Positions 3,336 to 36,785 are shown, numbered from the stretch's first letter. The stretch is DNA of 64,000 nt from Candidatus Doudnabacteria bacterium (GCA_003151625.1 PLYC01000010.1:133515-197514); one strand, 5' to 3'. The notes: generated by a model not told the origin, from the sequence alone. Made by a program: numbers and translations.

Positions 3336-3338
3336 TAT

Positions 3339-4328: not shown

Positions 4329-4331
4329 AAT

Positions 4332-18332: not shown

Positions 18333-19127
18333 TTATTGGTTTAATGCTAAATAATAACCGGGATAATAGAAGCCGGTTTTGCGTTTTTGGATGTTGGTAA
18401 AATCCAGGTGGCCGTTTGGACCGCCGGAATAAATTTTGCGGTTTAAGGCTTTTGCCGCGTGCAGCGCCACTGTGGCGTCGTAAACATTCAGGTCTTCGGC
18501 GTAAAACCCAGCTGTTTGTTTTAAAATAAACATAGACTGCTCATCGGCATCATCCATGCTGTTTCCCCAGTTAATAAACTTAATACCTTTGTCGGTAAGC
18601 TCTTTATAAATATCCCCTAAGGCTGTTTTGGGGTTGCCTTTATAATAAAGAACCGCATTTTTTTCCGCCAATGTAGATTCAAATTTTGGCTGGATTCCCA
18701 CAGTTGAATAGGTGTTTTTAATAATTTTTATGGTCCAGTCCAAAACCGGAAAATGTTTAAAAGTATAAAGCAGATTTTTTCCATCGTGCAGAGAAACAAT
18801 AACATTAAAAAATTTGCCTCCTCTGGCATAAATAGCCGTCCCATCAATGGGATCAATTGCCAGGTAGTAACCGTTTGTACCGGTAAATTTTGAAACCAAA
18901 GGCGTGTCTTCTTCGGCCAGCAAACGGCAATTAACCAAATCCGTCTTCACCATCTCCCCCAACAAAAATTCCTGCACAGCCAAATCCGCTTCCGTCACAA
19001 TATCAACCACATTTAACCCCGTGTTAGTTTTGTTGTGATGTTTTGCCGTGCTTTGCATTCTGCAAGCTATTTGCCCTGCTTGCATAAACACAGGTTCCAA
19101 TTCAATTAAAGTTTCAATTAAATTCAT
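18333..19127 (-). CDS. Inositol monophosphatase-family phosphatase
   Basis: Motifs EEDT, AIDPIDGT and a downstream WD pattern of the IMPase/FIG fold. Confidence 0.75.
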   Translation of the reverse strand: MNLIETLIELEPVFMQAGQIACRMQSTAKHHNKTNTGLNVVDIVTEADLAVQEFLLGEMVKTDLVNCRLLAEEDTPLVSKFTGTNGYYLAIDPIDGTAIYARGGKFFNVIVSLHDGKNLLYTFKHFPVLDWTIKIIKNTYSTVGIQPKFESTLAEKNAVLYYKGNPKTALGDIYKELTDKGIKFINWGNSMDDADEQSMFILKQTAGFYAEDLNVYDATVALHAAKALNRKIYSGGPNGHLDFTNIQKRKTGFYYPGYYLALNQ

Positions 19128-19327
19128 ATTCCTGTTTATTATAGCACGATTAAGCAGGCTTTTCTTTTTCCCTGTTTTATCTTATAATATACCTTAGTTG
19201 TCTTGTTTCGGATTTCGATTTTCGACATTCGAATTTTTAATACCTTGGGGCGTCGCCAAGCGGCCCGTCTCGGCCGAGGTTATCCGAATTAGCCGAGCCG
19301 AGGTGGATAAGGCAGCACAAAAAAACT

Positions 19328-19582
19328 ATGCCAGGCTATATTTATGTCCTTTTTAGTAACAAGGACAGTAAAACTTATTTGGGCTCAACCGATAATCTTC
19401 AAAGAAGACTGGACGAACATTTTGCGGGAAAAGTAAAAGCAACAAAAAATAGAAGGCCTTTAAAATTAATTTATACTGAAGAATATATGCTTTTGGGAGA
19501 AGCCAGAAAGAGAGAAATGTACTTAAAAACCCACGCCGGAAGAAAAAGATTAAAGGAATTGCTAAAGAATTTTACAAAATAA
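19328..19582 (+). CDS. Small GIY-YIG nuclease-family protein (YhbQ/UPF0213-like)
   Basis: YIYVLFSNKDSKTYLGSTDNLQRRLDEH...GKVKATKNRRPLKLIYTEEY matches the short GIY-YIG family. Confidence 0.8.
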   Translation: MPGYIYVLFSNKDSKTYLGSTDNLQRRLDEHFAGKVKATKNRRPLKLIYTEEYMLLGEARKREMYLKTHAGRKRLKELLKNFTK

Positions 19583-19598
19583 ATTTTTTACTAACGAT

Positions 19599-19673
19599 TG
19601 GGGTGTCGCCAAGCGGTAAGGCAGGGGCCTTTGAAGCCCCCATTCGTAGGTCCGAATCCTACCACCCCAGCCA
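19599..19673 (+). tRNA. tRNA-Gln (anticodon UUG)
   Basis: Manual cloverleaf: acceptor TGGGGTG/CACCCCA (U1-A72 as in E. coli tRNA-Gln), D-arm GCC-AAGCGGTAA-GGC, anticodon arm GGGGC-CTTTGAA-GCCCC, T-arm GTAGG-TCCGAAT-CCTAC, G73, CCA. Confidence 0.8.
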
Positions 19674-19909
19674 TTAGTAAATAATTTATAAAGCATTGGC
19701 GTCGCTCGTCTCGGCTTCGCCGAGCCGAAGTCGGACCAAGCAGCCCGTCTCGGCCGAGGCTATCCGAATTAGCCGAGCCGAGGTCGGATAAGGCAGGGGC
19801 CTTTGAAGCCCCCATTCGTAGGTTCGAATCCTACCGCCCCAGCCAACAACTCTCTCATAATACCGGAGACCGAAGAGTATCAGCGTTTCAAGAGACAGTC
19901 AATGATTTT

Positions 19910-20584
19910 ATGCCGTCAGATAAATTCGAAAAAACAATAGCTGCAATAGTCTGCTGCTACAACGAGGCTCGAACGATTGAACGAGTAATATCCGATTTAC
20001 TCAAAATCCCATTTTTATCGCAAATTATTGTTGTGGATGATGGTTCCTCTGACAATAGCCGGCAAATATTACAAAAATATAAAGAAGAAGTTACTATTCT
20101 TTTCAATGCATCTAATAAAGGAAAAGGTTGTAGTGTTGCCCGTGCATTGGAGATTGCAAATTGCGATATCATCCTACTATTAGACGCTGACATCATTAAC
20201 TATACTGCTGCTGATTTAAAGTTGCTTGTAGAGCCAGTTATGCAGTGGAAGTTCGACTTTAGTGTAAAAGTTCCTGATAGTTATTTTTTTCTTTATGTAA
20301 ACGTTAGCGGAATCCGATGTTATTGGCGTAAAGATTTATTGCCTCTTGCTACCGCTTTTACGCGAACCAGCAAATACGGTATAGAGTTGTTTTTAAACAA
20401 AGCAATGCGGCAAAAAAGCGGGGTATTTATAAAACTAAGCGATTACCGGCACACTGATAAATTCCAGAAGTATCCTTTTTTCAGAGCTGTTTGGGAATAT
20501 GGCAAAGAGGCCGGGAGCCTATTGTATCAGATAATTCTTACTTCCGACCGAGGGGCGTTATACAGTATTAAAAAGAATCCCTAA
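19910..20584 (+). CDS. Family 2 glycosyltransferase (DPM1-like)
   Basis: IVCCYNEARTIERVI, VVDDGSSDNS and LLDADI (DxD) motifs. Confidence 0.75.
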   Translation: MPSDKFEKTIAAIVCCYNEARTIERVISDLLKIPFLSQIIVVDDGSSDNSRQILQKYKEEVTILFNASNKGKGCSVARALEIANCDIILLLDADIINYTAADLKLLVEPVMQWKFDFSVKVPDSYFFLYVNVSGIRCYWRKDLLPLATAFTRTSKYGIELFLNKAMRQKSGVFIKLSDYRHTDKFQKYPFFRAVWEYGKEAGSLLYQIILTSDRGALYSIKKNP

Positions 20585-20649
20585 AAACCCTTTGAAGGCC
20601 GCTAAAATGGTGGTTCTAAACCGGGTTACACAGCCAGTAATTTTATAAA

Positions 20650-21141
20650 ATGGAAGCTACTCAAAATTCATTACCCGAAATTGCCATTAGGGAATATAGA
20701 CTCGATGACTCTTTACAAATAAAAGAGTGTTTGCTTGTATTGCAGGATTTTGTTCACCTTTTGGAGCCAAAAATTGTTGCCACCGGCTCAAAGGTTTTTG
20801 ACAGTTATTTTGAATATTTGATAAATGAAATAAATAAAAAGGATGGTAAAATTTTTGTTGTTGAATCAAGGAATGCAATTGTTGGTTTTGTTGGATTATT
20901 TGTTACACAGGAAGAATGGGAATCGGAAAAATCTTTGTACATTTCCGATCTTGTCGTGTTAGAAAAATACCGTGGTCTAGGCTTAGGAACTAAACTTTTG
21001 GAATATGTTGAAGATTATGCAAAACAACAGGGTGCAAAATTCATAAAAATCGGGGCGCTCGAAAAAAATCACGGCGCACTAGATTTGTATCGCAAAATGG
21101 GTTTTGCTGATTATTTGGTTGTCTTGCTAAAAACGCTATAA
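20650..21141 (+). CDS. GNAT-family N-acetyltransferase
   Basis: Motif LVVLEKYRGLGLGTKLLEYVEDYAKQQGAKFIKIGALEKN is the GNAT A/B motif. Confidence 0.8.
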   Translation: MEATQNSLPEIAIREYRLDDSLQIKECLLVLQDFVHLLEPKIVATGSKVFDSYFEYLINEINKKDGKIFVVESRNAIVGFVGLFVTQEEWESEKSLYISDLVVLEKYRGLGLGTKLLEYVEDYAKQQGAKFIKIGALEKNHGALDLYRKMGFADYLVVLLKTL

Positions 21142-21177
21142 TTTTATAACAAAATTGTTCTAATTTGGTCAAATAAA

Positions 21178-21256
21178 GCCAGCCAACGTTTTTCACCAAT
21201 GTTTATTGGTGATTTTTTGTAAGGCCATATAGTACTTTGGAACCGTGGTATAATAA
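21178..21256 (+). promoter_or_regulatory. Repeated promoter cassette R1: CAGCCAAC...CACCAAT-N5-ATTGGTG palindrome...TGGTATAAT (second copy at 39488-39562)
   Basis: About 85% identity between the two copies. A 7-bp inverted repeat lies 25-30 nt upstream of an extended -10. Confidence 0.5.
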
Positions 21257-21282
21257 ACTTGTTGACTAATTAAAATGTAATT

Positions 21283-21708
21283 ATGCAAACAAACAATTTT
21301 TGGATTTTGGTTTTAATAATTTTATTTATCGTTGCCTATTATTACGGAGGCGCATATTTGATTTATTCTCGGATGAAAGCAAGGAATGACAAAATGGAGA
21401 AACTGGCCTTGGAGTATGGCTTAAAGTTTGAAAATAAAATGCCTCCTTATAATCGGTCGCACTACAGAAACTTTAAGCAGTTAGTCGCCAACTGGGTATC
21501 TGGTAATATAGGCCAGCACTCTATCGAAATCAGCGATGTATATCACGACGAGCTACACCAGGACTTGAAAGATTACTTAAGATTTACACGCACTATCTTT
21601 AAAATCGACGACAAAGAAAAAATGGAAATTAAAGACCAATTGACTCTCCGCTCCTCAAGATTGACCACAATCAATGAACTTCGTTCAGATTTAAAAAAGT
21701 TGTTTTAG
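21283..21708 (+). CDS. Hypothetical protein with N-terminal TM
   Basis: 141 aa ORF immediately downstream of the R1 promoter cassette. Confidence 0.4.
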   Translation: MQTNNFWILVLIILFIVAYYYGGAYLIYSRMKARNDKMEKLALEYGLKFENKMPPYNRSHYRNFKQLVANWVSGNIGQHSIEISDVYHDELHQDLKDYLRFTRTIFKIDDKEKMEIKDQLTLRSSRLTTINELRSDLKKLF

Positions 21709-21737
21709 GAAGCAAGCAGTCGCATCTTTGCTCAATT

Positions 21738-21772
21738 TTTGTTCGAACATCGTCCCACAGCCCCAGCCAACA
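21738..21772 (+). repeat. tRNA-3'-end-like direct repeat TTGTTCGAACATCGTCCCACAGCCCCAGCCA (second copy at 53915-53950)
   Basis: 24-nt identical core plus a CCAGCCA ending. The two copies bracket about 32 kb. Confidence 0.5.
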
Positions 21773-21918
21773 ATTTTGGTTCCTACAGACCTACCAACCC
21801 TGAACCAAAGTTACAAGTCTTAAGAAAATAAGAGCATGGATTTTGCATCCATGCTCTTATTTTTTTCTACATTCAGTAAAAATATGCTAAAATAAGGTCA
21901 TAATTTCAATAGAATTCT

Positions 21919-22914
21919 ATGAACAAAATATATCCGGAAAAATTAAAAGTTGGAGATGAAGTTAGAATTATAGCGCCTTCAAGATCGCTCGGCATTATCT
22001 CAAATAATTTAAGAGAGATAGCCAACCGCCGATTTAGGGATTTAGGGCTTAAAGTCAGTTTTGGCAAGCATGTTGAAGAAAAAGACGAGCTTGATTCTTC
22101 CGGTATAGAATCTCGCATTGAGGACTTGCATGAAGCGTTTGCCGACAAAAACATCAAAGCAATTTTTACCGTCATTGGCGGGTATAATTCCAACCAGTTG
22201 TTGAAGCATATTGATTGGCAATTGATAAAAAATAACCCAAAAATACTTTGTGGCTATTCTGATATTACAATCTTAAATAATGCTATTTACGCCAAGACCG
22301 GATTGATAAGCTACTACGGCCCGCATTATTCCACTTTCGGGCAGGAAAAGCACTTTGACTATACTTTGGATTACTGTAAAAAATGTTTGTTTTCTGACGA
22401 ACCGTTTGAAATTAAACCCAGCGAAAATTGGAGTGATGATTTTTGGTTTAAAGATCAAAACAACCGCACCTTCATTCCTAACGAAGGGTGGTTGGCAGTA
22501 AACGAAGGCGAAGCTGAGGGAACTATCCTCGGAGGTAATCTTTGCACTTTTAATTTGATACAAGGCACGGAATTTTTTCCAGATTTGAACGACAGTATTT
22601 TATGTTTGGAAGACGATGATTTACCAAAAGAAAATTCCGCTGTGGAATTTGACCGCAATCTGCAATCCTTAATTCAGCAACCAAATTTTGAAAAAGTCCA
22701 AGGTTTGGTCATTGGCAGATTCCAAAAAGGCAGCCAAATTACGAACGAAAAGATAAAACAAATTATAAAATCAAAAAAAGAGCTGGCTAATATGCCCATA
22801 ATTGCCAATGTCGATTTTGGCCACACCGATCCCAAAATAACCCTTCCAATTGGCGGAGAAATTCAGATTAAAGCGCATTTTCAGAATTCCCAAATAAACA
22901 TAACTAAACATTAA
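21919..22914 (+). CDS. LD-carboxypeptidase (peptidase S66; LdcA/MccF-like)
   Basis: VRIIAPSRSL, ILCGYSDITILNNAIY (Ser nucleophile) and a C-terminal His/Glu region. Confidence 0.8.
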   Translation: MNKIYPEKLKVGDEVRIIAPSRSLGIISNNLREIANRRFRDLGLKVSFGKHVEEKDELDSSGIESRIEDLHEAFADKNIKAIFTVIGGYNSNQLLKHIDWQLIKNNPKILCGYSDITILNNAIYAKTGLISYYGPHYSTFGQEKHFDYTLDYCKKCLFSDEPFEIKPSENWSDDFWFKDQNNRTFIPNEGWLAVNEGEAEGTILGGNLCTFNLIQGTEFFPDLNDSILCLEDDDLPKENSAVEFDRNLQSLIQQPNFEKVQGLVIGRFQKGSQITNEKIKQIIKSKKELANMPIIANVDFGHTDPKITLPIGGEIQIKAHFQNSQINITKH

Positions 22915-23055
22915 AGTTACCATTCAAGCAAAAAAATAAGGGCATGGACAAAAAATCCAAGCTCTTTTTTATCTAATGTTATTCCAAGTCTTTAAAATAT
23001 AGGACAATAGGGGTCGACGAGAGCCGGCCCCTATTTGGTTTGAGCGCCATTGCGC

Positions 23056-23508
23056 TCAGTTGATGGTGACGGGACGCAGCTCGAGGGGTTCCTGTTCGTA
23101 GGGAACGAAGAACGCTTTGGATCCCGCCACAGCTACGCCCTTTCCGGAAGTCCCGTCCGCCAAGGCGAGACCGATGTTGCAGCGGCAGCCTAATCCTGGA
23201 GTGGTGATGAGTTCGTGATACTGCTGAAAGGCCTCGCTCCACCTCTCCAGGACGATATGGTGACCGTGGTCGTCAGTGTAGACATTGACACCCTCTTCGT
23301 GCAGGAGGCGGAGAACGGCGTTCTCCACAACCTTGCCCGAGAAGGGCTTGTCCGCATTGATTACCAGGTGAAACAGGCGGCCGGTCATCCGGGCGCCGTT
23401 CATGATGATGGTTTCTGGGTTGCCGACAACGAACTTCGTATCCGGTTGGCCGGATCGTAAATGCATTGCCAGCGTTTCCGCAATCTGCCCTTGACGTTCT
23501 GTGAACAT
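23056..23508 (-). CDS. Hypothetical 150-aa protein of the high-GC island
   Basis: High-GC codon usage continuous with the island. No confident family; motifs VVGNPE and TDDHGHH noted. Confidence 0.45.
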   Translation of the reverse strand: MFTERQGQIAETLAMHLRSGQPDTKFVVGNPETIIMNGARMTGRLFHLVINADKPFSGKVVENAVLRLLHEEGVNVYTDDHGHHIVLERWSEAFQQYHELITTPGLGCRCNIGLALADGTSGKGVAVAGSKAFFVPYEQEPLELRPVTIN

Positions 23509-23544
23509 ACACGCTCCTTGGTTGGTTGTCGGTAACTTTCGGTA

Positions 23545-23754
23545 TTAGGCCGAGTGAACGCAGGTGCCGTCGGAATTGTAGGCATAAACTTCAATGCCGA
23601 CGCCGCGGTTGGTGTGAGCGATGTCATCGATCTCCCGTTGGCTTAACGGTGCGTTGTAGTCGCCAATAAAGAAATCTTCGCCATGCTCGTGCCCGATGAA
23701 ACGGATCTTACCATCCGGAGCCTTGGGCTCCGTATCTGACTTTCGGAATAGCAT
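23545..23754 (-). CDS. Hypothetical 69-aa protein of the high-GC island
   Basis: ORF upstream of the 150-aa gene in the same transcription unit. An AT-rich promoter spacer precedes it. Confidence 0.35.
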   Translation of the reverse strand: MLFRKSDTEPKAPDGKIRFIGHEHGEDFFIGDYNAPLSQREIDDIAHTNRGVGIEVYAYNSDGTCVHSA

Positions 23755-23904
23755 GATTCCTCCCCCTTTGCAAATTTATATCGCACGTTTCAAAACATAT
23801 TTATAAACTCTGTGAACCGTAAAATAATGAAAATACTACTTACTGAGAAAATGATCTTGGTTTGAAATAATTATATACCTATTCAATAAATAAAAACAAC
23901 CTGA

Positions 23905-23945
23905 AAAAATCAACCCGGCGCGTCCTCCTTTGCGCCGGGCGTGGT
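23905..23945 (-). terminator. Terminator after HisRS-like paralog 1 (CCCGGCGC-loop-GCGCCGGG + T-run on the minus strand)
   Basis: Seen directly. Confidence 0.6.
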
Positions 23946-23959
23946 TGAAGAACAACAAC

Positions 23960-25285
23960 TTAAACCTCCTGGAGCACCTGCCCCAGGGCATTCCGGACAT
24001 CGGCCTCGAAAGCGGAGCGGCATTCGAGGGCGTGGGTGAGGGTGGCTTCTTTGCCGCTGACGCAGACCACCAACTGGCATCCGCGGAGTTTGGCCTGTTC
24101 TACCGCTCCCGCGGAGGAAAGCGGGTCGTAGCTCAGGTCAACGTTGATGCCAGCATTGCGAAGCTGCTGGGCGAATCGGAAAGCCATGGCTGTACTGTCG
24201 TTATTGCCGCAGTACGCTACCAGGACTTTATCCGGAAGGACAAGCTCGGATTTGAGCATGTCCAATTCCTTCATGACTGCAAGGATGCGGTCGAGGCCGA
24301 AGGCCATGCCGACCGCCGGTTCAGGCGGAGCGCCGAAAGCGCCCACCAGATTGTCGAATCGGCCACCGCCGAGTACCGCGCCGATTGGCACGCCGGGAAT
24401 CACTCCTTCCAGAATGAAACCGGTGTAATAGTCGGCGCCGCGAGCCAACGTAAGGTCGATTCTGACGTGAGATAGCACTTCGTCGGGCAGATAAGAGAAA
24501 ATCTCCCGGAGCTCAGCGATGCCGGTTAATCCGGCCGGCTGGTCGTGAAGATTGTCTTGAAGGTGTTGAAGCATGTCTTCGAGCGAGCCGGAAATAGCGA
24601 TGACGCCCATAATGCTTTCTATCAGGGCGCTGCCAACCCGGCGGCGTTTCAGGTCTTCGCGAATCCCTTCCAGGCCTGCCTTGGTCACCTTGTCGGCGTA
24701 ATCCATAGCGCGTTGCACCTTGAGGATGCCGTCTTTGCCGGTGATACCGGCGCGGGCAGCAATGGCCTGGATGATCATGCGATGATTGACGCGGATGACG
24801 AACTGCCGGAAACCGAGGTCGCAAAGGCCGCGGTATGCTACGGAGATAATATCAGCGTCAGCCAGAAGGCTGGAAGCGCCAATGATGTCCCCATCGCATT
24901 GCATAAACTCGCGGAAGTGCCCCTTGTCCGGTTTGTCATCGCGAAACACATAGCCGAACTGATACCGCTTGTAGGGGCGGGGCAGGTCGGGGTGCATGCT
25001 GGCTACGCGAGCCAGCGGTACCGTTAGGTCGTAGCGGAGAACGAGACGGTGTTTCTTGTTGTCTCCCAGGCGGAAGATGAGCTTCTCGCCCTCGCCGTGG
25101 TGGCCGTCAAATACGACCTCGTTCTCGATGGTGGGGGTATCGTGGGGAGTGAAACCGCTCTTCTCGTAGACAGAACGGAGAATACGGATAACGTAATCAC
25201 GCACCCGCATTCCAAGCCCCAGCTTGTCAGTAGTGCCCGGAGGGACGGCGTTCTTAAGCCGAGACCGGGTCTGTGGATGACCCAT
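23960..25285 (-). CDS. Divergent class-II HisRS-like paralog 1 (full length with anticodon-binding-like domain)
   Basis: Altered motif 2 RDDKPDKGHFREFMQCDGDIIG, histidine-binding ARGADYYTG, motif 3 LGGGRFDNL and a C-terminal alpha/beta ABD-like region. Confidence 0.8.
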   Translation of the reverse strand: MGHPQTRSRLKNAVPPGTTDKLGLGMRVRDYVIRILRSVYEKSGFTPHDTPTIENEVVFDGHHGEGEKLIFRLGDNKKHRLVLRYDLTVPLARVASMHPDLPRPYKRYQFGYVFRDDKPDKGHFREFMQCDGDIIGASSLLADADIISVAYRGLCDLGFRQFVIRVNHRMIIQAIAARAGITGKDGILKVQRAMDYADKVTKAGLEGIREDLKRRRVGSALIESIMGVIAISGSLEDMLQHLQDNLHDQPAGLTGIAELREIFSYLPDEVLSHVRIDLTLARGADYYTGFILEGVIPGVPIGAVLGGGRFDNLVGAFGAPPEPAVGMAFGLDRILAVMKELDMLKSELVLPDKVLVAYCGNNDSTAMAFRFAQQLRNAGINVDLSYDPLSSAGAVEQAKLRGCQLVVCVSGKEATLTHALECRSAFEADVRNALGQVLQEV

Positions 25286-26621
25286 TGTTTGCGCTCTCCT
25301 TGGCGCGGATGAGGCTAATAGCCTCTTTGGTGCTCACGTTGCTGGTTTGTCCTGTGGACATATCCTTGAGGGAAACATAGCCGCCGGCGACTTCGTCGTC
25401 GCCGATCACGATGATGAAAGGAATTCCCAGCCGGCTGGCGTAGGTTACCTTTTTTTTCAGCTTGGCATCATCGAAGTATACGGCCGTAGGTATGCCGCCT
25501 TCGCGCAACTCGGTAGCTGCCTGCAAAGGAACGCGGAGATCGGAAGTTTGCGGAATGACCAGCACTATAGCGGGCGTTGCGGATTTGGGAGTAATGATGC
25601 CCGCTTCGCGAAGCTGGTAAAACAGCCTGGTCAGGCCAATGGAAATTCCGACGCCGGGCAACTGTTTGTTGGTATAGTACCCAGCCAGGTCGTCGTAACG
25701 TCCGCCCGAACAGACACTGCCGATGCCGGGGTAGTCATTCAGCACCGTTTCGTACACGGTGCCCGTGTAATAGTCGAGGCCGCGGGCGATTGTCAGGTCA
25801 ATAGCGTAATTCTGCCCGGGAACCCCAAGCGCCGAGACGTAGGAAATTACCTTCTCCAATTCGTCGACGCCGGTATGGAAAGTGCCGTTGCTGATCTGCA
25901 TCTGCTTGAGCTGGGAGAGGATGGCGGCCGTGTCGCCTGTCAATCCGATGAACGCAAGAACTTCGCGCGCCGCATTGGGTGGCGCTCCTAGACCGGCCAA
26001 CTCCTGCTGAACTGCTTCCTGCCCGGCTTTCTCCAGCCTGTCGACCGAACGGAGGATGTCCGCGGCCTGGCTGGCAAGTCCGAGCGATTCGAAGAAGCCG
26101 TTCAGAATCTTGCGATTGTTGATTTTGATGGTGAAGCGGGAAAAGCCGAGCGCCGTAAAGGTTGCGTAGATGACGCTGGGAATTTCCGCGTCGTTTAGCA
26201 AACTCAAAGCGCCGTCGCCGATGATGTCGATGTCGCACTGGTAGAATTCCCGGAAACGGCCTCTCTGCGGCCGCTCTCCGCGGAACACTTTTCCGATGTG
26301 GTAGCGCCGGAAAGGAAACGCGAGGTCCGGATAGTGCTGCGCTACATAGCGGGCCAACGGAACCGTGAGATCAAACCTCAAGGCCAAATCGCTGTCGCCC
26401 TTGGTGAAGCGGTAAATCTGCTTTTCGGTCTCACCGCCCGCCTTGGCCAAAAGCACTTCGGCCAATTCGATGACGGGGGTATCTAGCGGAATGAACCCGA
26501 ACCGTTCATAGCTTTTCTGGATTACTCCCAACATGCCGTTGAACAGCATTTGGTCTGCCGGGAGCAGTTCCATAAAGCCGGAAAGGATCCGGGGGGTGAC
26601 TTTACTTGGATTGTTGTTCAT
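25254..26621 (-). CDS. Class-II HisRS-like paralog 2 (more canonical)
   Basis: Motif 2 FRGERPQRGRFREFYQCDIDIIG, ARGLDYYTG, CSGGRYDDL and ABD region AIVLVIP...IPFIIVIGDDE. Its 3' end overlaps paralog 1 by 32 nt. Confidence 0.8.
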   Translation of the reverse strand: MNNNPSKVTPRILSGFMELLPADQMLFNGMLGVIQKSYERFGFIPLDTPVIELAEVLLAKAGGETEKQIYRFTKGDSDLALRFDLTVPLARYVAQHYPDLAFPFRRYHIGKVFRGERPQRGRFREFYQCDIDIIGDGALSLLNDAEIPSVIYATFTALGFSRFTIKINNRKILNGFFESLGLASQAADILRSVDRLEKAGQEAVQQELAGLGAPPNAAREVLAFIGLTGDTAAILSQLKQMQISNGTFHTGVDELEKVISYVSALGVPGQNYAIDLTIARGLDYYTGTVYETVLNDYPGIGSVCSGGRYDDLAGYYTNKQLPGVGISIGLTRLFYQLREAGIITPKSATPAIVLVIPQTSDLRVPLQAATELREGGIPTAVYFDDAKLKKKVTYASRLGIPFIIVIGDDEVAGGYVSLKDMSTGQTSNVSTKEAISLIRAKESANNGSSTDPVSA

Positions 26622-26875
26622 AATATTTGATCAATCCTCCTGCATGGTACAAACTACGGAATGACTGGCTCCATAATTCTGCCAATCGATGGTAAAGAAC
26701 AAACAAGCTCATCCTTATTGCACGGATAAACTTATCGTATTACTATAAATCAATTTAGCTTATATTGTCAAGGAGATTGGGTTTGGCCAGAGAAGCCCCT
26801 GACAAAATTTTTTAACTTGATTTTATTGGATAAATAATATATATAAAAGTCGAGTGAACTGTAAAAAAAGATATC

Positions 26876-26920
26876 CGGGCAGCTCCTAAGAGGAACTGCC
26901 CGGAAGATAAAACCTTTGCC
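26876..26920 (-). terminator. Terminator after the MIO-lyase gene (CCGGGCAG...CTGCCCGG + T7 on the minus strand)
   Basis: Seen directly. Confidence 0.6.
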
Positions 26921-26933
26921 AAACGGCTCGGGT

Positions 26934-28589
26934 CTAAGTGGTCAACGCGTTGCAGGCTGACTGCATCAGACTTCCGTCTGCCAGCATGCCCTCGACTGCG
27001 TCCAACTCGGCCTTGAGATACCGGTCATCAAACCAGGTCTGGTGGCCTTTTGCCGTTTCCTTCTGGAATACGCCGCGGATGTGGCCGTAAGCCTCGCTCG
27101 TTCCGAGCCCGAGCTGCTGGAGGTTTTCCGGCAGCAAATGCTGAGTGAGGGTGATCCCTTGCGACGCCATGAACAGTTCGGCGGCAAGCACGCGACGGAT
27201 GATCGGCAGCATGGAGCGAACTTTGAGAGCGCTGTTCATTCCCATGCTCACCCAGTCTTCCTGGTCTGCCGAGGTCGTGATCGAATGAGTCGAGCAGGGA
27301 TTGGCCAGAAGCGCAATCTGATTCACCAAGGAGGCAACCCCATATTGCACGATCATCAGGCCGGTATTGGCCGTATTGGGACCGGCAAGATCCGCAGGCA
27401 AACCGTAGCTTAACCTGGGAGTAGTCAGAGCGAAACCTCGCCGGTCACTGGCGCCGGCAAGCGGCGTCAGGGCTATTGCGAGGTAATCCAGCGGCGCCGC
27501 CAAAGGCTGACCGTGAAAATTGCCGCCTGAAATGGCTATGTATTGCGCGCCGTTCTCATCATCCTCGAACACCAGAGGATTGTCGGTTGCCGAGTTGAGT
27601 TCGACTTCGAGAATCGATTCCAGATGAGAAAGTGCTTGGTATGCCGCCGCATGAATCTGGGGCGCACAGCGGAACGAGTAAGCGTCCTGAACGCGGGGAA
27701 CCTGCTTGCCGTGGCTAAACTTCTTCTGTTCGTCCGGAAAGGCTACGGATCTGGCTTCTTCCGTAATTCTCCTGGATCCTTCGGTAAACTTCCTGATGCG
27801 CGCCGCGGAATGAACCTGACCGGGTAATGGCCTGGCTTCATGGATGCGGGCATCGAAAGCGTTCTGTTCTCCGCGAATAGCCTCTAAAGACAAGGCCGTA
27901 GCGAGGTCGGCGGTTTCCAAGAGAATCCAGCCGTCCACTACCGCAAGACACGCAATTGCCGCAATGAAGTTGGCGCCGTTTGTCAGTGCCATGGCTTCTT
28001 TGGCCGCAAGCGTGAGGGGTTTGAGGCCGTGGTTTTCAAGAACTGTTCTGGCCGGTTGAATTTCGCCCGCCACGAACATTTGACCTTCCTCAAGGCCGAT
28101 TATGCCCGCGGACATGTGAGCCAAGGGAATTAAATCTCCCGAGGCGCCCACCGATCCGAACTCAGGGACTACCGGGGTAAGCCCCAAATTCAGGCAATCG
28201 CGGAGCCTTTCAATCAGGCAAGGTCGCACGCCGGAGTGACCCTTCAAAAAGTTGTTCAGCCGAACAAGCATGGCTGCTCGGGTGACTTCGGGTGAAAGCG
28301 GGTTCCCATAGCCGCAGCAATGGGCCGGGATATAACGCATCTGGTAATCGGACAGTTCGTCCGACGGCAACACTTGGTTCTTGCGGGAGCCACAGCCGGT
28401 ATTGACACCGTACATGATGTCTCCACGGATAGCGGCGGCTTCGAGTCCTTGACGGAAACGTTCGATTTTCGCAAACGTCTCGGGGTTGATCTGAACCTCG
28501 TGATGATGTCTGGCCACGGCTATAACCTGTTCAGTGGTTAAGCTGTGACCGTCTACCTCCACGATTCTCTGCGTAAGCATAGATTTCAC
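26934..28589 (-). CDS. MIO-dependent aromatic amino-acid ammonia-lyase/aminomutase family protein (HAL/PAL-like)
   Basis: Ala-Ser-Gly MIO triad in GSVGASGDLIPLAHM, plus YGVNTGCG and a selectivity-region A-H (IPAHCCGYG) resembling the HAL S-H. 551 aa. Confidence 0.85.
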   Translation of the reverse strand: MKSMLTQRIVEVDGHSLTTEQVIAVARHHHEVQINPETFAKIERFRQGLEAAAIRGDIMYGVNTGCGSRKNQVLPSDELSDYQMRYIPAHCCGYGNPLSPEVTRAAMLVRLNNFLKGHSGVRPCLIERLRDCLNLGLTPVVPEFGSVGASGDLIPLAHMSAGIIGLEEGQMFVAGEIQPARTVLENHGLKPLTLAAKEAMALTNGANFIAAIACLAVVDGWILLETADLATALSLEAIRGEQNAFDARIHEARPLPGQVHSAARIRKFTEGSRRITEEARSVAFPDEQKKFSHGKQVPRVQDAYSFRCAPQIHAAAYQALSHLESILEVELNSATDNPLVFEDDENGAQYIAISGGNFHGQPLAAPLDYLAIALTPLAGASDRRGFALTTPRLSYGLPADLAGPNTANTGLMIVQYGVASLVNQIALLANPCSTHSITTSADQEDWVSMGMNSALKVRSMLPIIRRVLAAELFMASQGITLTQHLLPENLQQLGLGTSEAYGHIRGVFQKETAKGHQTWFDDRYLKAELDAVEGMLADGSLMQSACNALTT

Positions 28590-28774
28590 TCCTAAACCGA
28601 GATTTCAACTGTACTGAGACTTAGAACAGACAACCCAAAAATAGGTGCGTTGATGTTATTTTTCCTCCAAATTCAAGGCAAAACAAACAACTCAACCCTT
28701 TGAGCGGTCTGGTCTGTGCTATATGCATATACCTTTTAACACCCTTCTGTCAAGGGCTTAAATAAAAGAGTTTT

Positions 28775-29374
28775 TTATCTACGCTTACCGACTTCGTCCG
28801 TAATATTTTTAAAAGAGATATCTTTTTCTGCCAGTAAAACGAACAGGTGGTAAATTAAATCCACAGTTTCCTCAATTAATCTGGGTTTGGTTTGTTTTTG
28901 CGCTGCGTGTACAACTTCGAGTGCTTCCTCGGCCACTTTTAGGGAAATTTTGTCCAAACCAGCTTTGAATAAAGAGGCTGTATAGGATTTTTTTGGCATC
29001 TTTAATTTTCGCTCCTGGATTACGCTGAACAACTCCAATAATTTGTTGGGGTCAAAATTTTCTTTAAAACAGGAATAAGCACCCGTATGGCACGTCGGAC
29101 CTACCGGTTTGGCTTTAATTAGTATTGCGTCGTTATCACAGTCTAACTTTATATCAACAAGGTTTAAGATGTTCTTGCTGGTTTCGCCTTTCATCCAGAG
29201 CCGCTGTTTGCTTCGGCTATAAAACCAAACTTTTTTTGTCTTTAAAGTTTTGGCGAAAGATTCCTTATTCATATAACCCAGCATCAAAACAGCGGACGTG
29301 TCGGCATCTTGAATGACGGCCGGTACCAGACCTTGACTTTTTGTCCAATTTATTTTTTTGATTAAATTTTTCAT
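28775..29374 (-). CDS. hisIE: Bifunctional phosphoribosyl-AMP cyclohydrolase / phosphoribosyl-ATP pyrophosphatase
   Basis: N-terminal HisI ([18 protein letters not shown]) and C-terminal HisE helices. Confidence 0.85.
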
Positions 29375-30855
29375 AAGCGTATTGGTATGTTATTAGTTGA
29401 TAAATAATTTTTAACCTGGCTGACGCTAAATTGTCCATAATGGAACAAACTTGCTACCAATGCCGCGTCTGCCTTGCCCTCGGTAAAAGCCAATTTTAAA
29501 TCTTCCAAAGATCCGGCGCCGCCTGATGCGATAACAGGGATTTTTACCGCTTCCGAAACTTTTTTCAAAAGCTCTAAATCATAACCTGATTTTGTGCCGT
29601 CCTTATCCATAGAGGTCAATAAAATTTCTCCCGCTCCTCTTTTTTCAGCTTCTTTGGCCCAGTCGATTGCGTTTAATGAAGTTTCATCGCGGCCGCCCTT
29701 TAGAAATACTTTATATACGCCATCCTTCTTTTTTGCGTCAATTGCTACCACCACGCATTGCCGGCCAAAAGCAAGCGCTGCTTCGGAAATAAATTCGGGG
29801 TTAAGCACGGCCGTGGTATTAATGGAAATTTTGTCAGCGCCTAATTGCAATAATTTGCGAATATCATCAACGGTCTTAATTCCGCCCCCAACGGTGAAAG
29901 GTATAAAGACCTCTTTGGCCACCTGGGCTACCATGTCAAATAACGTCTGCCGATTCTCATGCGACGCGGTAATGTCAAGAAAGACCAGCTCGTCAGCGCC
30001 TTCTTCAGAATACCTGCGACCCAAGGCTACCGGGTCGCCCGCATCCCTCAGGTTTACAAAAGATACGCCCTTAACCACCCTGCCGTCTTTAACGTCCAAG
30101 CAGGGAATAATTCGTTTGGTTAAGTTTGATACAGGTGTTTGAAAATTTAAAGCCTCAGCCAACGTTAGCCTATTTTCATACAAAGCTTTGCCCAAAATGG
30201 CGCCAAAGGCACCCAATGTATTTATTTTTTTCAGAGATTTTAAATCGGAAATTCCTCCGGACGCTATAACATTAAACCCCAAATTTATCAGTTCTTTTAA
30301 AACTATAAAATTTGGCTCGGTTAGGCTGCCGTCTTTTTCCACGTCCGTAAACAAGATTTCGGTTATCCCAAGGGTTTTAAGTTCTTTGGCAAAATCCAAA
30401 TAATTTTTATCAACGGTTTCCTGCCACCCTTTTATCGCAATTTTGCCTTTTTTAATTTCCAGCGCTACTACTATTCGCTTGCTGCCGAACTCTTTAATTA
30501 AAGATGATAATAGGCCAAAATCCGTTAATGCTTTGGTGCCTAAAACAGCACGCCGCACGCCGGAATTTAAATATTTTTGCGCGGTACTTATATCGCGGAT
30601 CCCTCCGCCGACTTCTATGGGAATTTTGACAGCCTTACAAATTTTGGTAATCAGTTCCTGGTTGACCGGCACTCCTGTTTTAGCCGCATCCAAATCAATA
30701 ATATGAAGCATGGCCGCCCCTTGCCGCTCAAAGTCTTGGGCCACGCCTAAAGGATCGGAAGAATAAATTTTTTTCGTGGAAAATTCTCCCTTAGTTAACC
30801 TTACACATTTGCCGTCAATAATGTCTATCGCGGGAATAATTAACATAAATCGCAA
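29371..30855 (-). CDS. hisAF: Fused HisA-HisF protein (ProFAR isomerase + IGP synthase cyclase subunit)
   Basis: The first ~240 aa are HisA-like ([27 protein letters not shown]). The last ~250 aa are HisF-like ([44 protein letters not shown]). Continuous 494-aa ORF. Confidence 0.85.
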
Positions 30856-31430
30856 AAGTTAGATAATAATTTCATTCCCCATTGTCCGGATTTTTCCGGA
30901 TGGAATTGAGTAGCGTAAAAGTTATCTTTCTGTGCGATGGCCGCAAAATCAACATCATAAGCGGTTTGACCGATAACGTATTTTAAGTCCGTTGCCAAAT
31001 AATACGAGTGCACAAAGTAAAAGAAACTACCTGTCGGAATTTCTGTCGTAAGCTTGGATTCTTTAATTAGCTCAACTTTATTCCAGCCCATATGCGGGAC
31101 TTTTAAGTCTGTTTGGAATCTTACTACCCGGCCGGGAATTATAGATAAACATTCGGTGTTATCTTCTTCCGAAAATTCCGCCATCAACTGCATGCCTAGA
31201 CATATCCCTAAAGTAGGAACTTTAAGTTTAGGTAAAACTTTGGCAAAGCCGCTTCCTATTAGTTTCTCCATAGCGCTTCCCGCCGCGCCAACCCCGGGCA
31301 AAATAACCTTATCAAAAGCAGCCAAGCTTTCCGGTTTGTTTACAATCTCAAAAGACTTGCCAAGCGAAGTTAACGCGTTGGCTACGCTTTGTAAGTTACT
31401 CGCGCCATAATCTATAATCGCGATTTTCAT
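30840..31430 (-). CDS. hisH: Imidazole glycerol phosphate synthase glutaminase subunit
   Basis: [22 protein letters not shown] (catalytic Cys) and VHSYY. Confidence 0.9.
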
Positions 31431-32489
31431 TTATAATGACCCTTTCGTGGAAGGCAGTATATCCTTTTGCCGGAAGTCCTTATCAACCGCCATACGCAAA
31501 GCCTTGGCAAAAGCTTTGAAGATTGCCTCTATTTTGTGATGTTCATTCCGGCTATATTTAACATTAATGTGAATATTGGCCTTCATTGTTTCGGCAACTG
31601 AACGGAAAAAGTGTTCTACCATTTCCGTTGGCAGGTCTCCGACCTTCTCTCTTTTAAAATCACAGTTAAACACTAAATACGGTCTGCCGCCCAAGTCTAT
31701 CGCAACCTCCACAAGCGTATCGTCCATTGGCAATAAGAATCCATAACGTTTTATGCCTTTTCTTTCGCCCAATGCCTGTAATAGAGTCTGCCCCAATGTT
31801 AGCCCCACATCTTCTATTGTGTGGTGGTCATCTATCTGTAAATCGCCCTTGGCTTTAATTGTTAAATCAATCAGCGAGTGTTTGGAAAGCTGTTCCAGCA
31901 TGTGGTTGAAAAAATTGATTCCCGTATCAACGCTAAAATTCCCTTGTCCATCCAGATTGCACAAAATAAAAACTTCGGTTTCTTTTGTGCCGCGCTCCAA
32001 GCTTGCGATTCTCGGAAATATTGAATTGGTTTGCATGCCAAAAAACTTCACTCCGATATTTTTGGCAAATCCCGCATCGCTTTCCCTGTCTCCGACCATA
32101 AAAGATTTTTCAAAGTCTATAAGTTCTTTTTGCAAGAAACTTTTCAATAATCCGGCTTTCGGCTTCCTGCAATTGCATTTATCTTTAGCAAAATGAGGGC
32201 AGGTAAATATTCCGTAAAATTCTACCCCTTCCTTTTTTAGCAGTTTCAAAAAAGCATTTTGTACTATTTCAAAATCTTTTTTTGGAAAGGACATTGTACC
32301 CAGGCCGTCCTGATTGGAAACCATAACCAGTTTATAGTTTTGATTTGTCAGATTCTGTAGAACTAAAATTACCCCAGGCAAAATTTTAAGTTTGTCCAGG
32401 CTGTCTACCTGCTCGGTAACCGGCGGTTCAATAATTAGTGTGCCGTCCCTGTCCAAAAAGGCAATTTTTAACAGTTGTCCGGAATTCAT
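31431..32489 (-). CDS. hisB: Bifunctional histidinol-phosphatase / imidazoleglycerol-phosphate dehydratase
   Basis: N-terminal HAD motif FLDRDGTL. C-terminal IGPD motifs (DDHHTIED, RNEHHKIEA). Confidence 0.9.
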   Translation of the reverse strand: MNSGQLLKIAFLDRDGTLIIEPPVTEQVDSLDKLKILPGVILVLQNLTNQNYKLVMVSNQDGLGTMSFPKKDFEIVQNAFLKLLKKEGVEFYGIFTCPHFAKDKCNCRKPKAGLLKSFLQKELIDFEKSFMVGDRESDAGFAKNIGVKFFGMQTNSIFPRIASLERGTKETEVFILCNLDGQGNFSVDTGINFFNHMLEQLSKHSLIDLTIKAKGDLQIDDHHTIEDVGLTLGQTLLQALGERKGIKRYGFLLPMDDTLVEVAIDLGGRPYLVFNCDFKREKVGDLPTEMVEHFFRSVAETMKANIHINVKYSRNEHHKIEAIFKAFAKALRMAVDKDFRQKDILPSTKGSL

Positions 32490-33526
32490 ATAATTGATGA
32501 TAAATTTTTAATTAATAATTGATTTTGCTCCGGTGTGCCAATGGAAATCCTAATGCAGTTTTCGAGTTTGGGTTTGGAATTAAAATCTCTTACGATAATT
32601 CCAAAATCTTCGGCTAATTTTTTCGCTATCAGCGATGCGTTAGGATAACGAACCAGTAAAAAATTGGCTTCGCTGGGAAAAACTTTAAATCCTAATTTAG
32701 TTAATTCCAAAGCCAATTTTTCTCTTTCCCTGAGTATTAAGGTTTTAAATTCCAACATCTTTGGGTATTGCTGCAAGGCCTGTATAGCTATCTTGCTGGA
32801 AACACGGTTTAAATTATATGGCGGCTTAATTTTGTTTAAATATTCAATAGGAGCCTCCTGCGCTACGGCATAACCTACCCGAATACCGGCTAATCCCCAG
32901 GCTTTGGAAAAAGTTCTAAGTATAATCAAATTTTCCAAACTTGATATTTTGCCGATTAAAGACGGCTTTGAAGCAAACTCAACGTAAGCCTCATCAACCA
33001 CTACAATGCCGCGGAAATTGCCGCAAATCTTTTCCAATTCTTCCGGCTTAATTAAAGTTCCGGTAGGGTTGTTTGGGGAGCAACAAAAAATAATCTTTGT
33101 TTTGCTGTTTATTTGGGAAAGCAGGTTTGGAACATCCACTTGGAAATCTGAAGTCAAAGAAATATTTTTTACTGCCACCCCGGCAACTTCGGCCGCAACT
33201 TTGTACATCCCGTATGTGGGTTCCATTATTATAATTTCTTCGTCTGGCTCTACAAAAAGACGAATAAGCAAATCTATGGCCTCGTCCGAACCGTTACCCA
33301 CAAAAATGTTTTTTTCCGAAATTCCCAAAAATTTTCCCAATGCTTTGCGCAAATCAAGGGAGTAGGGATCGGGATAACGGTTAAGTTCGTTGTCGATTGA
33401 TTCGTTAATGACACTGCCAAGCGAGTTTTCGTTGGCGTCCATAAAGACGCCTTTTTGATAAAGGCTGCGGGCCGAACTATAAGGTTTAAAGCCTCTTAAA
33501 TTGGAACGTATTAAATCGGTAATCAT
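32486..33526 (-). CDS. hisC: Histidinol-phosphate aminotransferase
   Basis: Class-II aminotransferase with GSDEAIDLL and the PLP-Lys region TFSKAWGLAGIRVGY. Confidence 0.9.
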   Translation of the reverse strand: MITDLIRSNLRGFKPYSSARSLYQKGVFMDANENSLGSVINESIDNELNRYPDPYSLDLRKALGKFLGISEKNIFVGNGSDEAIDLLIRLFVEPDEEIIIMEPTYGMYKVAAEVAGVAVKNISLTSDFQVDVPNLLSQINSKTKIIFCCSPNNPTGTLIKPEELEKICGNFRGIVVVDEAYVEFASKPSLIGKISSLENLIILRTFSKAWGLAGIRVGYAVAQEAPIEYLNKIKPPYNLNRVSSKIAIQALQQYPKMLEFKTLILREREKLALELTKLGFKVFPSEANFLLVRYPNASLIAKKLAEDFGIIVRDFNSKPKLENCIRISIGTPEQNQLLIKNLSSII

Positions 33527-34818: not shown

Positions 34819-35438
34819 TAATTAATACCGCACTTGGATAAGAATTTTGCTTTGGCCTGCTTATTAATCGGGCTTTCGATTAATACGGCTTGGGATTCTA
34901 ATATCGTGAATAACGGCACCAAATTATGCGCTTTTAAAGTAGTGCCGGTTTGCACTATATCGCAAATAGCGTCTGCCAGGTTCAAATCTGGCGTTATTTC
35001 CACGGAACCGGAAATGGGAATTATGGCCGCCTCAAGCTTCTCTTTTTTTAAATAGTCGGTAAGCAGTTTTGGATAGGAAGTGGCGATTCTTTCTCCTTCC
35101 AAATCCTTGGAGGTTTTTATAACGGAGTCTGCCGGAGCCGCTATCATCAGCCTGCATTTGCCAAAATCAAACTTTTTTAATATTTTCGGTTCAAATTCTT
35201 TTTCCGCGAGGACATTTTGTCCCACAATGCCAAAATCCGCCACGCCCCGGCTCACGTATTCCGGAATATCATCGTCCCTAAGATATAATACATCAAGGTC
35301 AAAATTTTGACAGGGCAGAATTAGCGAATGCCCGTTTGGAGCAAAAGTCAGCCCGCAAGAAACAAGGAAGTCCATACTGCCCTGATTCAGCCGGCCGCTT
35401 TTTTGAACGGCAATTCTTAGTCTTTCCGGAGTTTTCAT
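34818..35438 (-). CDS. hisG: ATP phosphoribosyltransferase, short form
   Basis: 206 aa short HisG (LRIAVQKSGRL). Overlaps the upstream HisRS gene by ATGA. Confidence 0.9.
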   Translation of the reverse strand: MKTPERLRIAVQKSGRLNQGSMDFLVSCGLTFAPNGHSLILPCQNFDLDVLYLRDDDIPEYVSRGVADFGIVGQNVLAEKEFEPKILKKFDFGKCRLMIAAPADSVIKTSKDLEGERIATSYPKLLTDYLKKEKLEAAIIPISGSVEITPDLNLADAICDIVQTGTTLKAHNLVPLFTILESQAVLIESPINKQAKAKFLSKCGIN

Positions 35439-36727: not shown

Positions 36728-36785
36728 AAAAAAAATGTTAATTAAAAATCCACCCTGCTAATTTAGGGTGGGCGGTTTAAGAGCT

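Follow-up and report, generated by a model that had tools for sequence, protein, structure and literature searches.

The tyrS-tdcA-tyrP tyramine clusters are islands analogous to the histidine decarboxylase (HDC) islands of lactobacilli. The latter, with the gene order hdcP-hdcA-hdcB-hisS, are horizontally transferred, and their extra histidyl-tRNA synthetase (HisRS) is thought to secure the charging of tRNA-His as histidine drains (PMC5313534, PMC4122935). The tyramine clusters are touched on in a paper (PMC9413887) in which TrpR-family HisR proteins are described as histidine-responsive repressors, with one paralog located beside hutH, and with hutH/hutU being regulated by a TrpR-family HisR paralog in Oscillibacter. 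Among the paralogs of HisRS, HisZ is the only one with a known function listed in a review (PMC9437257). Here we describe a locus in a stretch of 64,000 nt from a Candidatus Doudnabacteria bacterium (GCA_003151625.1 PLYC01000010.1:133515-197514), the whole of which is referred to as the window. A 5.8 kb island (22976-28770) next to the his operon carries the gene for a 4-methylideneimidazole-5-one (MIO) enzyme related to histidine ammonia-lyase (HAL), the genes for two HisRS homologs (HisRS1 and HisRS2), and two small open reading frames (ORFs; orf69 and orf150). We favour, with moderate confidence, the interpretation that this acquired island is a module for histidine catabolism and charging, transplanted from elsewhere and similar to hdcA-hisS, and that it represents a fragment of a 'histidine neighbourhood' of Patescibacteria.

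The island segment is foreign and horizontally acquired, and the contig is not chimeric. In 400-nt windows the GC content was 0.34-0.40 up to 22.9 kb, 0.55-0.61 across 23.0-28.4 kb and 0.38 again from 28.6 kb, with two internal spacers visible as dips (0.41-0.46), and the island as a whole had a GC content of about 0.57 versus a mean of 0.42 outside it in the same window. The first-pass annotation, made from the sequence by eye of a model, had placed the jump at the same borders, with its contrast of 38 versus 60% being slightly too large. The GC content at third codon positions (GC3) was 0.64-0.70 in the island genes versus 0.38-0.43 in the flanking genes, and the tetranucleotide profile of the island correlated with those of three related loci (L016, 0.83; L021, 0.83; L022, 0.81; contigs and loci from other assemblies are given by our L numbers) versus 0.63 with the host, so that the foreign origin proposed at the outset is borne out by GC, GC3 and tetranucleotide signature. 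Five ORFs, all on the minus strand, fill the island, and the gene calls agreed with Pfam and NCBIfam on this gene content and on its position between ldcA and hisIE, as annotated originally (Table 1). The ORFs are organised in three transcription units (the MIO gene, HisRS1-HisRS2 and orf69-orf150), each closed by a hairpin and T-run terminator, and all three terminators of the initial description were recovered. A promoter-like match was seen for the second unit only, while the MIO gene probably starts at the ATG at 28580 with AGGAG in front, giving an ORF of 548 aa (26934-28580), which is also the start called in other assemblies.

The same arrangement was present in ENA contig L001, with single-residue differences, and in a 425-kb contig. 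In L002 (JARLHZ010000034), which is a distinct strain, nucleotide identity was 96.4% over ldcA and the island and 96.0% over the his genes, and in L023, a contig from Hainich groundwater with ~89% identity, it was 89.4% in the island versus 89.3% in the flanks; substitutions relative to the related assemblies were spread evenly across island and flanks. The nearest metagenome-assembled genomes bear conflicting labels (Doudnabacteria, Saccharibacteria, Roizmanbacteria, Patescibacteria group, TM6 and Gammaproteobacteria); homologs of ScpA carried Doudnabacteria and Patescibacteria labels only. The reproduction of the junctions in independent assemblies also answered the concern, raised with the first-pass annotation, that the contig might be chimeric. 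The gene order in L023 was hisAF-hisIE-prs-(first 303 MIO codons)-ldcA, representing a 4.66-kb internal deletion (window 23024-27680) with one junction in the MIO gene and the other in the terminal hairpin after orf150, where half of the last terminator remains, and both island ends are thus retained; L003, a contig of the same lineage, stops at that deletion junction. Because the junctions recur across assemblies and L023 has an internal deletion, the island predates the divergence of at least three sampled lineages, one of which can do without it. All ORFs were intact in every full-length copy of the island, and comparison of the window with L002 gave ratios of nonsynonymous to synonymous substitution rates (dN/dS) of 0.08-0.18 for all five genes (0.08 for HisRS2), at dS values of 0.03-0.21 and with low substitution counts for the two small ORFs, which by this measure shows purifying selection on the island genes.

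The MIO protein matched PF00221 (3.6e-161) and had HALs as its closest PDB matches, and scored below the cut-offs of NF006871 (488.4 versus 524) and of the tyrosine 2,3-aminomutase model (335 versus 501). The Ala-Ser-Gly triad (A149-S150-G151, within GSVGASGDL) was invariant in an alignment of 16 clade sequences, as were Y60, H90, N204, Y304, R307, F358 and E444, which align with solved HALs and correspond to Y53, H83 (= H90, the HAL-specific histidine), N195, Y280, R283, F329 and E414 of the P. putida HAL. The selectivity position consists of A-H, which is of the S-H type of HALs. The clade also has invariant features of its own (C66, C91/C92, W446 and a 15-residue insertion), and the nearest relatives, with 57-73% identity, came from metagenome-assembled genomes labelled Patescibacteria.

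Metagenome contigs were scanned with the clade alignment, followed by tblastn of the loci, and this set of loci revealed a conserved neighbourhood. A canonical HisRS was encoded at most 4 kb from the MIO gene in 21/21 distinct loci (MIO at least 41% identical, GC 0.33-0.58), in the majority as a hisS-MIO tandem with hisS directly upstream on the same strand at a gap of approximately 10-90 nt, and, as an internal control, hisS was near the MIO gene in none of 15 high-GC loci (GC 0.66-0.71, MIO 37-42% identical). Neighbour clustering and annotation identified a recurrent array consisting of a TrpR-family regulator, a CntK-like racemase-fold protein, a GNAT, an M15 peptidase, hisS and the MIO gene, which has an intact hisS in L032, L034, L035, L036 and L054 and a hisS frame split in two in L028, while the same gene set is found in another order in L016. 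Furthermore, the gene for urocanase (HutU) adjoins the clade in L028, L035, L052 and L054, with the order hutU-hisS-MIO in L035 and L052. Because of the HAL residues and this context of hisS, urocanase and a HisR-like regulator, we conclude that the MIO gene is, as far as can be read from sequence and synteny, a HutH-type HAL gene of a histidine regulon-like cluster and not one for a natural-product enzyme. With HisRS1 and HisRS2 as the other two family assignments, the cargo is indeed centred on histidine, as the first-pass annotation had it.

The array members in Patescibacteria include a two-Cys racemase-fold protein and a VanX-like M15 peptidase, sometimes with urocanase and a methyltransferase, and the array hints at salvage of D-/L-histidine or of histidine-containing peptides. 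For a 250-aa protein in L016, the precomputed CntK_N label was not reproduced by our Pfam run, which gave a weak match to DAP_epimerase, and the designation is hence limited to CntK-like or racemase fold. Additional HisRS genes were seen in L025 (9980-15613), where the MIO gene is followed by two of them, in L054 (8578-20066), where a second HisRS gene lies ~7 kb from the hisS-MIO pair, and in L060 (4614-13305), with the order hisS, hisS2 and then a third hisS. Since 9-12 kb of sequence contains two or three HisRS homologs at these loci, the hisS partnered with MIO or HisRS2 may not always be the housekeeping copy. A literature search on a hisS-HAL link in the candidate phyla radiation (CPR), or on a histidine aminomutase, found nothing relevant.

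The two HisRS homologs of the island, both taken for complete enzymes originally, turned out to differ. HisRS1 scored 391.6 with the hisS model TIGR00442 (cut-off 286.75), matched HGTP_anticodon at 7.5e-14 and has motifs 1-3 and the HisA and HisB motifs, with canonical residues throughout, all of which identifies it as a canonical HisRS. HisRS2 cannot be called complete in functional terms, since its C-terminal domain is degenerate and its score of 283.2 is just below the hisS cut-off; the match to HGTP_anticodon was weak (1.2e-4), and with the hisZ model TIGR00443 it reached 185.1, below the cut-off of 271.65. Homologs of HisRS2 number in the hundreds at 44-57% identity, and in a family set of 117 sequences R113, R123, Q127, R259, Y263, Y264, GGR and R311 were retained (E. 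coli numbering), whereas R121H and L261A substitutions were found in 117/117 and Q118D in 110/117, together with a family-specific motif, F-x-G-H-H-G-x-G-E. Pairwise identity within the family was 0.22 in the C-terminal domain versus 0.56 in the core, compared to 0.31 versus 0.45 for the canonical set, with only one invariant residue beyond position 345. In canonical HisRS the motif-2 loop touches the acceptor end of tRNA-His. As this loop is changed in HisRS2 while the core residues are kept, its sequence suggests that histidine and ATP binding are kept and that tRNA recognition is altered or lost.

The HisRS2 family comprises over 100 clusters, the majority of them from uncultured bacteria; in the typical arrangement the gene follows a canonical hisS and is translationally coupled to it. 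In the window, L010, L060/61 and L062/63, a canonical hisS immediately precedes the HisRS2-family gene; in L011 only an M42 peptidase gene comes between the two, and in Lysinibacillus (L013-15) and L058 the gene is unpaired. In the contexts examined, hisG was never a neighbour of HisRS2-family genes, the neighbours being hisS, the M42 peptidase, EamA or LdcA. In L058 (6001-8514) an LdcA (S66) homolog, 46% identical to the window ldcA product, directly follows the HisRS2-family gene, which is a single case and maybe a coincidence. The canonical HisRS encoded beside HisRS2-family genes are also the ones closest to HisRS1 in sequence, with 84% identity for L010 and 55-59% for L060 and L062. A quick neighbour-joining (NJ) tree was built, in which the HisRS2 family was monophyletic, HisRS1 grouped with the HisRS of L010, L016 and L011 beside the MIO-adjacent clade, and the 430-aa HisRS of the host was placed elsewhere. 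HisRS2 thus apparently belongs to a widespread and undescribed paralog family that, judging from its residues and contexts, is neither HisRS nor HisZ.

With respect to the origin of the island, L016 (GC 0.53) contains in one cluster the MIO gene (73% identical), a HisR gene located between MIO and HisRS, the HisRS gene itself (47% to HisRS1), genes for a GNAT, an M15 peptidase and a CntK-like protein, and an orf69 homolog, and in a translated comparison of L016 with the window only MIO, HisR and orf69 matched, with HisRS matching more weakly. The MIO-HisR unit was found again in L064 (73% and 77% identity), with a large serine recombinase gene adjoining, and the GC content of the MIO gene in both loci was 0.58-0.59. 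The overlapping HisRS1-HisRS2 pair has its counterpart in L010, where the two proteins are 84% and 81% identical to those of the island and the genes have a GC content of 0.54-0.58. No sampled locus combines every part of the island, which therefore either came from a direct donor outside the sample or is composite. The best explanation is a donor that was a higher-GC bacterium of Patescibacteria type, whose nearest relatives in the sample are L016 and L064. The first-pass annotation had considered that the two HisRS paralogs and the lyase might turn out to be ordinary housekeeping orthologs that are syntenic in relatives of similar GC, and in the donor lineages this is largely what was found (the 21/21 loci, which include L016 and L064, and the L010 pair). 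In L010 itself the pair (1957-6373) is richer in GC than its neighbours (0.31-0.50; HIT 0.31, M42 0.39), and it may be a transferred cassette there too.

The gene list of the first-pass annotation was extended by a third HisRS homolog and a TrpR-family HisR-like regulator, both at the head of the host his operon (36727-28775, minus strand; Table 1). This host HisRS shares only 34-38% identity with the island copies, and as no separate hisZ is visible beside the short-form hisG, the gene may encode a bifunctional HisRS/HisZ or a HisZ with all HisRS features. The hisR gene shares its origin with the donor cluster of the island; it has a host-like GC content of 0.40, and is GC-poor in both donors too (0.42-0.46). 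Just downstream of a perfect consensus promoter (TTGACA-17-TATAAT) and before hisR, there is a palindrome that matches the 7-6-7 architecture of published HisR sites (PMC9413887); the published Firmicute HisR operator consensus showed no enrichment in the window. Since the island lies at one end of the his operon and the donor-like HisR at the other, the operon is bracketed at both ends by histidine genes of predicted donor type. HisR may or may not have arrived together with the island, and could have moved in either direction. A hairpin and T-run between hisR and hisS (36728-36790) could be a terminator or attenuator. Within the operon, a single 494-aa ORF with two His_biosynth domains (29371-30855, minus strand) looks like a HisA-HisF fusion, and hisB is a fused HAD and IGPD gene.

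The third unit of the island encodes two small proteins. The orf69 product has a predicted beta-beta-alpha-beta-beta fold and resembles Dmd-like small binders, and its homolog in the L016 cluster is unannotated and 70% identical over the full length; orf69-like matches near MIO in L040, L043 and L047 were spurious, lying inside an RNase Z-like (metallo-beta-lactamase) gene. A toxin-antitoxin pair of orf69, as a Dmd-like antitoxin, with orf150 was considered as a candidate reading. For orf150 there was no match in Pfam, NCBIfam, PHROG or PADLOC, and an exhaustive HMMER search recovered nothing beyond fragments belonging to the same lineage and a tetratricopeptide repeat (TPR) protein, of which a single helix was matched spuriously. 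The start of orf150 is preceded by an AAGGAG ribosome-binding site, its five variants are 95-98% identical with one in-frame codon indel, and its dN/dS versus L002 was 0.18, from 8 substitutions only. An AlphaFold2 (AF2) model of its product had a predicted local distance difference test (pLDDT) score of 44.6, which is unusable, and was set aside.

Table 1. Features of the island and of the adjoining his locus in the window.
Feature	Position	Strand	Description
orf150	23056-23508	-	150 aa, orphan
orf69	23545-23754	-	small protein
HisRS2	23960-25285	-	441 aa
HisRS1	25254-26621	-	455 aa; 32-nt overlap with HisRS2
MIO enzyme	26934-28589	-	551 aa; Pfam and NCBIfam family match
Terminator after MIO gene	26874-26904	-	14-bp stem with 9 GC pairs, then T-run
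Terminator after HisRS2	23914-23939	-	hairpin with arms GCGCCGGG/CCCGGCGC, then T-run
Terminator after orf150	23006-23035	-	hairpin with 11-nt arms and T-rich tail; last structure of the island
Promoter-like site of HisRS1-HisRS2 unit	26771-26742	-	TTGACA-18-TATAGT, 11/12 positions match
Direct repeat, copy 1	22965-22975	+	TTTTTTATCTA, exact 11-mer; ldcA-side border
Direct repeat, copy 2	28771-28781	+	TTTTTTATCTA, exact 11-mer; overlaps hisIE stop codon; indel-polymorphic site
ldcA	21919-22914	+	island flank; Pfam/NCBIfam
hisIE	28775-29374	-	island flank; Pfam/NCBIfam
hisG	34818-35438	-	short form, 206 aa; 4-nt overlap with host HisRS
Host HisRS	35435-36727	-	430 aa; 404 bits with hisS (cut-off 286.75); anticodon-binding domain, canonical catalytic residues
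TrpR-family HisR-like regulator	36786-37085	-	directly upstream of host HisRS; 79% identical to L016 HisR, 77% to L064 HisR
Candidate HisR operator	37103-37122		perfect 20-bp palindrome CGTGTTA-N6-TAACACG, unique in the window

The 11-nt direct repeat reported earlier is present at both borders, and TTTTTTATCTA occurs exactly twice in the 64 kb, once per border, against an expected number of 0.21; when pairs of 100-nt windows were drawn at random from AT-rich host sequence, the empirical p for sharing an exact string of 11 nt or more was ~0.0125. The border repeat is partly conserved, with copy 1 being kept in L023 and having a 3-nt deletion in L002. The hisIE border is more variable, as L002 has 426 bp extra with a second TrpR-family gene (L002 16859-17134; GC 0.32; 44-48% identical to the TrpR-family genes of the L028-L054 clusters) and repeat-like copies on either side, and L023 has a prs (phosphoribosyl pyrophosphate synthetase) gene at L023 944-1885, while the window has neither of these genes. 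Because the lineages differ at this border, the 11-mer at 28771 could equally be the scar of a recombination event or a duplicated target site. Unlike in a classical integrative genomic island, there was no integrase or recombinase gene in the island or the rest of the window, and the island is not inserted at a tRNA gene, with tRNA-Gln lying at a distance of 3.3 kb; large serine recombinase genes do adjoin the MIO-HisR unit of L064 and the tRNA-Gln gene of L002. A defence or phage origin was rejected, as PADLOC and PHROG gave no meaningful matches. The interval from tRNA-Gln to ldcA resembles a second plasticity zone directly beside the island: a partial tRNA-like repeat follows ~100 nt after the tRNA (window 19599-19849; Rfam, 35.5 bits), and the cargo varies, with a GT2, a GNAT and a 141-aa orphan in the window, and a 511-aa large serine recombinase and three small genes in L002 (6006-9803). 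Just past the his locus, local GC peaks of ~0.50-0.53 were seen at window 38150-38600 and 39050-39500.

In the scenario that we favour, the island would have entered the ancestor of at least three sampled lineages and have been inherited vertically since. The MIO lyase of the first unit would convert L-histidine to urocanate and ammonia, thereby draining histidine, and HisRS1 of the second unit would add charging capacity and keep tRNA-His charged while the histidine pool falls. HisRS2, translationally coupled to HisRS1, would most likely work with it, either as an accessory protein or sensor that binds histidine or as a ligase not involved in tRNA charging. Together with the donor-like HisR, this would create one contiguous histidine super-locus for regulation, synthesis, charging and degradation. 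Several observations weigh against this scenario. The MIO protein scored 472.5 with the hutH model TIGR01225, below the cut-off of 539.15, and this score, the Cys substitutions and the insertion mean that the substrate is putative and that the reaction may be that of a lyase or of an aminomutase. Neither urocanase nor any other hut gene is present in the window, and none was seen in the flanks of the closest MIO relatives (L016, L017, L019, L021, L022, L024 and L064). The island genes have no upstream copy of the hisR palindrome and no T-box, which leaves any co-regulation by histidine hypothetical, and an Rfam scan of 19000-38500 at E<=1, with the HisRS1 leader included, detected no T-box or other element. 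The buffering role of HisRS1 is proposed by analogy only, the HisRS phylogeny is that of a quick NJ tree only, and the module is dispensable, as the host already makes histidine and has its own HisRS, and a sister lineage has deleted most of the island.

Alternatively, the island could be neutral or decaying cargo, a stretch of donor synteny transferred without an integrated function. The 4.66 kb deleted in the sister lineage (L023/L003), the loss in the window lineage of the second TrpR-family gene retained in L002, the presence of HisRS and histidine biosynthesis in the host, and the unameliorated GC3 of the island all fit such a reading, but dN/dS was 0.08-0.18 in all five genes at dS 0.03-0.21, the ORFs are intact in all full-length copies, and the predicted ribosome-binding sites, promoter-like site and terminators are intact in the window, which makes neutral cargo unlikely. 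A sharp GC break, and a related contig (L003) ending exactly at the border, could likewise be the marks of an assembly chimera or binning artefact; the probability of this is negligible, since both junctions were found in independent assemblies (96% and ~89% identity, with even substitutions) and the deletion derivative retains both island ends. The first-pass annotation had also suggested that the extra HisRS copies confer self-resistance or immunity to a natural HisRS inhibitor. Duplicated aminoacyl-tRNA synthetases (aaRS) can provide inhibitor resistance, such as IleRS2 against mupirocin (PMC9437257), but here there are no genes for inhibitor biosynthesis, HisRS1 is fully canonical, and the hisS-hisS2 and hisS-MIO pairings represent broadly conserved synteny and not a feature of biosynthetic clusters; this explanation is not supported and is highly improbable.

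Two further explanations were considered. In a dedicated histidine-modifying pathway, the MIO enzyme would act as lyase or 2,3-aminomutase, and HisRS2, and maybe HisRS1, would activate the product or histidine for a non-tRNA acceptor, comparable to EpmB/EpmA, in which a lysine aminomutase is paired with a LysRS paralog. HisRS2, in which the adenylation residues are kept but the anticodon-binding domain has degenerated and the motif-2 loop has changed, recalls aaRS paralogs with other acceptors (PMC9437257), and the clade-specific Cys residues near the active site, the MIO score below the hutH cut-off and the purifying selection on all five genes would fit as well. However, MIO and HisRS2-type proteins are found together only here (H121-type HisRS in 0/21 MIO loci, MIO in 0/7 other HisRS2 contexts), and dedicated chemistry is argued against because the two families do not co-occur elsewhere in the sample. 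A strong terminator furthermore splits the MIO gene from the HisRS pair, making these separate transcription units, genes for a carrier protein, a condensation enzyme, a transferase or an exporter are missing, and urocanase is linked to the MIO clade in four loci, so that we regard such a pathway as distinctly unlikely; the undescribed system of aaRS paralogs and MIO lyase envisaged at first is accordingly not upheld, the HDC-hisS islands being a described analogue. Alternatively, HisRS2 could be a HisZ-type regulatory subunit for the short-form ATP phosphoribosyltransferase of the host, with the island tuning histidine biosynthesis. The NCBI (PGAP) name of the L002 ortholog P0001 is 'ATP phosphoribosyltransferase regulatory subunit', the host hisG is of the short form (206 aa), and the island adjoins the his operon. 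A HisZ role is nevertheless very unlikely, as the hisZ score (185 with TIGR00443) is below the cut-off of 271.65, the catalytic arginines and histidine-binding motifs are fully kept, unlike in HisZ (PMC9437257), the family adjoins hisS and not hisG, also in loci without his genes, and an overlap of hisG with a HisRS-type gene already exists within the host operon.

In the histamine and tyramine islands known from lactic acid bacteria, a catabolic enzyme comes with a copy of the cognate aaRS. A catabolic and charging module acquired from a Patescibacteria-type donor would carry this design over to an ammonia-lyase and to uncultured bacteria with small genomes, and suggests a general rule for mobile modules that consume amino acids. 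In Patescibacteria, hisS and a divergent HAL gene are linked almost universally, often together with a HisR-like regulator, racemase-fold protein, GNAT, M15 peptidase and urocanase; this linkage is apparently undescribed, as is the HisRS2 family. The locus also documents the stepwise assembly and decay of a super-locus across three sampled lineages, with gain, loss of a regulator and a 4.7-kb deletion. It is possible, although we put this forward tentatively, that HisRS2 represents a new class of aaRS paralog, a histidine- and ATP-binding partner of HisRS which either senses histidine (for charging or catabolism) or transfers activated histidine to a non-tRNA acceptor, and that with it the hisS-hutH(-hutU)-HisR-racemase-GNAT-M15 cluster is an unrecognised system of histidine salvage and homeostasis in Patescibacteria that can be mobilised as a unit.

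Among the known systems compared, EpmA and EpmB are PoxA and lysine 2,3-aminomutase, with EpmB being a radical-SAM enzyme. The likeness of the island to them, which is a lead only, consists of an aaRS paralog without normal tRNA recognition located beside a possible isomerase of the cognate amino acid (PMC9437257), whereas the MIO enzyme is not a radical-SAM protein and the MIO and HisRS2 families are not co-distributed. HisRS2 shares with HisZ its derivation from HisRS, a reduced or degenerate C-terminal domain and the histidine context, but it retains the adenylation and histidine-binding residues, has hisS and not hisG as its neighbour, and stays below the hisZ cut-off. As for the hut genes, the island encodes a HAL with the full HutH catalytic set, and related loci have clustered urocanase and a TrpR-family regulator; the differences are the score below the hutH cut-off, the embedding of the clade among hisS, CntK-like, GNAT and M15 genes, and the lack of hutU, hutI and hutG in the window.

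The HDC islands are the closest of the described systems. They differ from the island described here in that their consuming enzyme is a pyruvoyl decarboxylase instead of a MIO ammonia-lyase, and that the island has no histidine/histamine antiporter and no T-box before hisS (Pfam/NCBIfam and Rfam), contains the extra HisRS2 and two orphan genes, and resides in a histidine prototroph from an uncultured small-genome lineage, with a donor of Patescibacteria type. Both are, however, horizontally transferred and of deviating GC content, and related loci have peptidases nearby. In each case, an enzyme that consumes histidine is accompanied by a catalytically complete HisRS additional to the one encoded by the housekeeping hisS of the genome; here these are HAL and HisRS1, on a segment of foreign composition, alongside the HisRS of the host.

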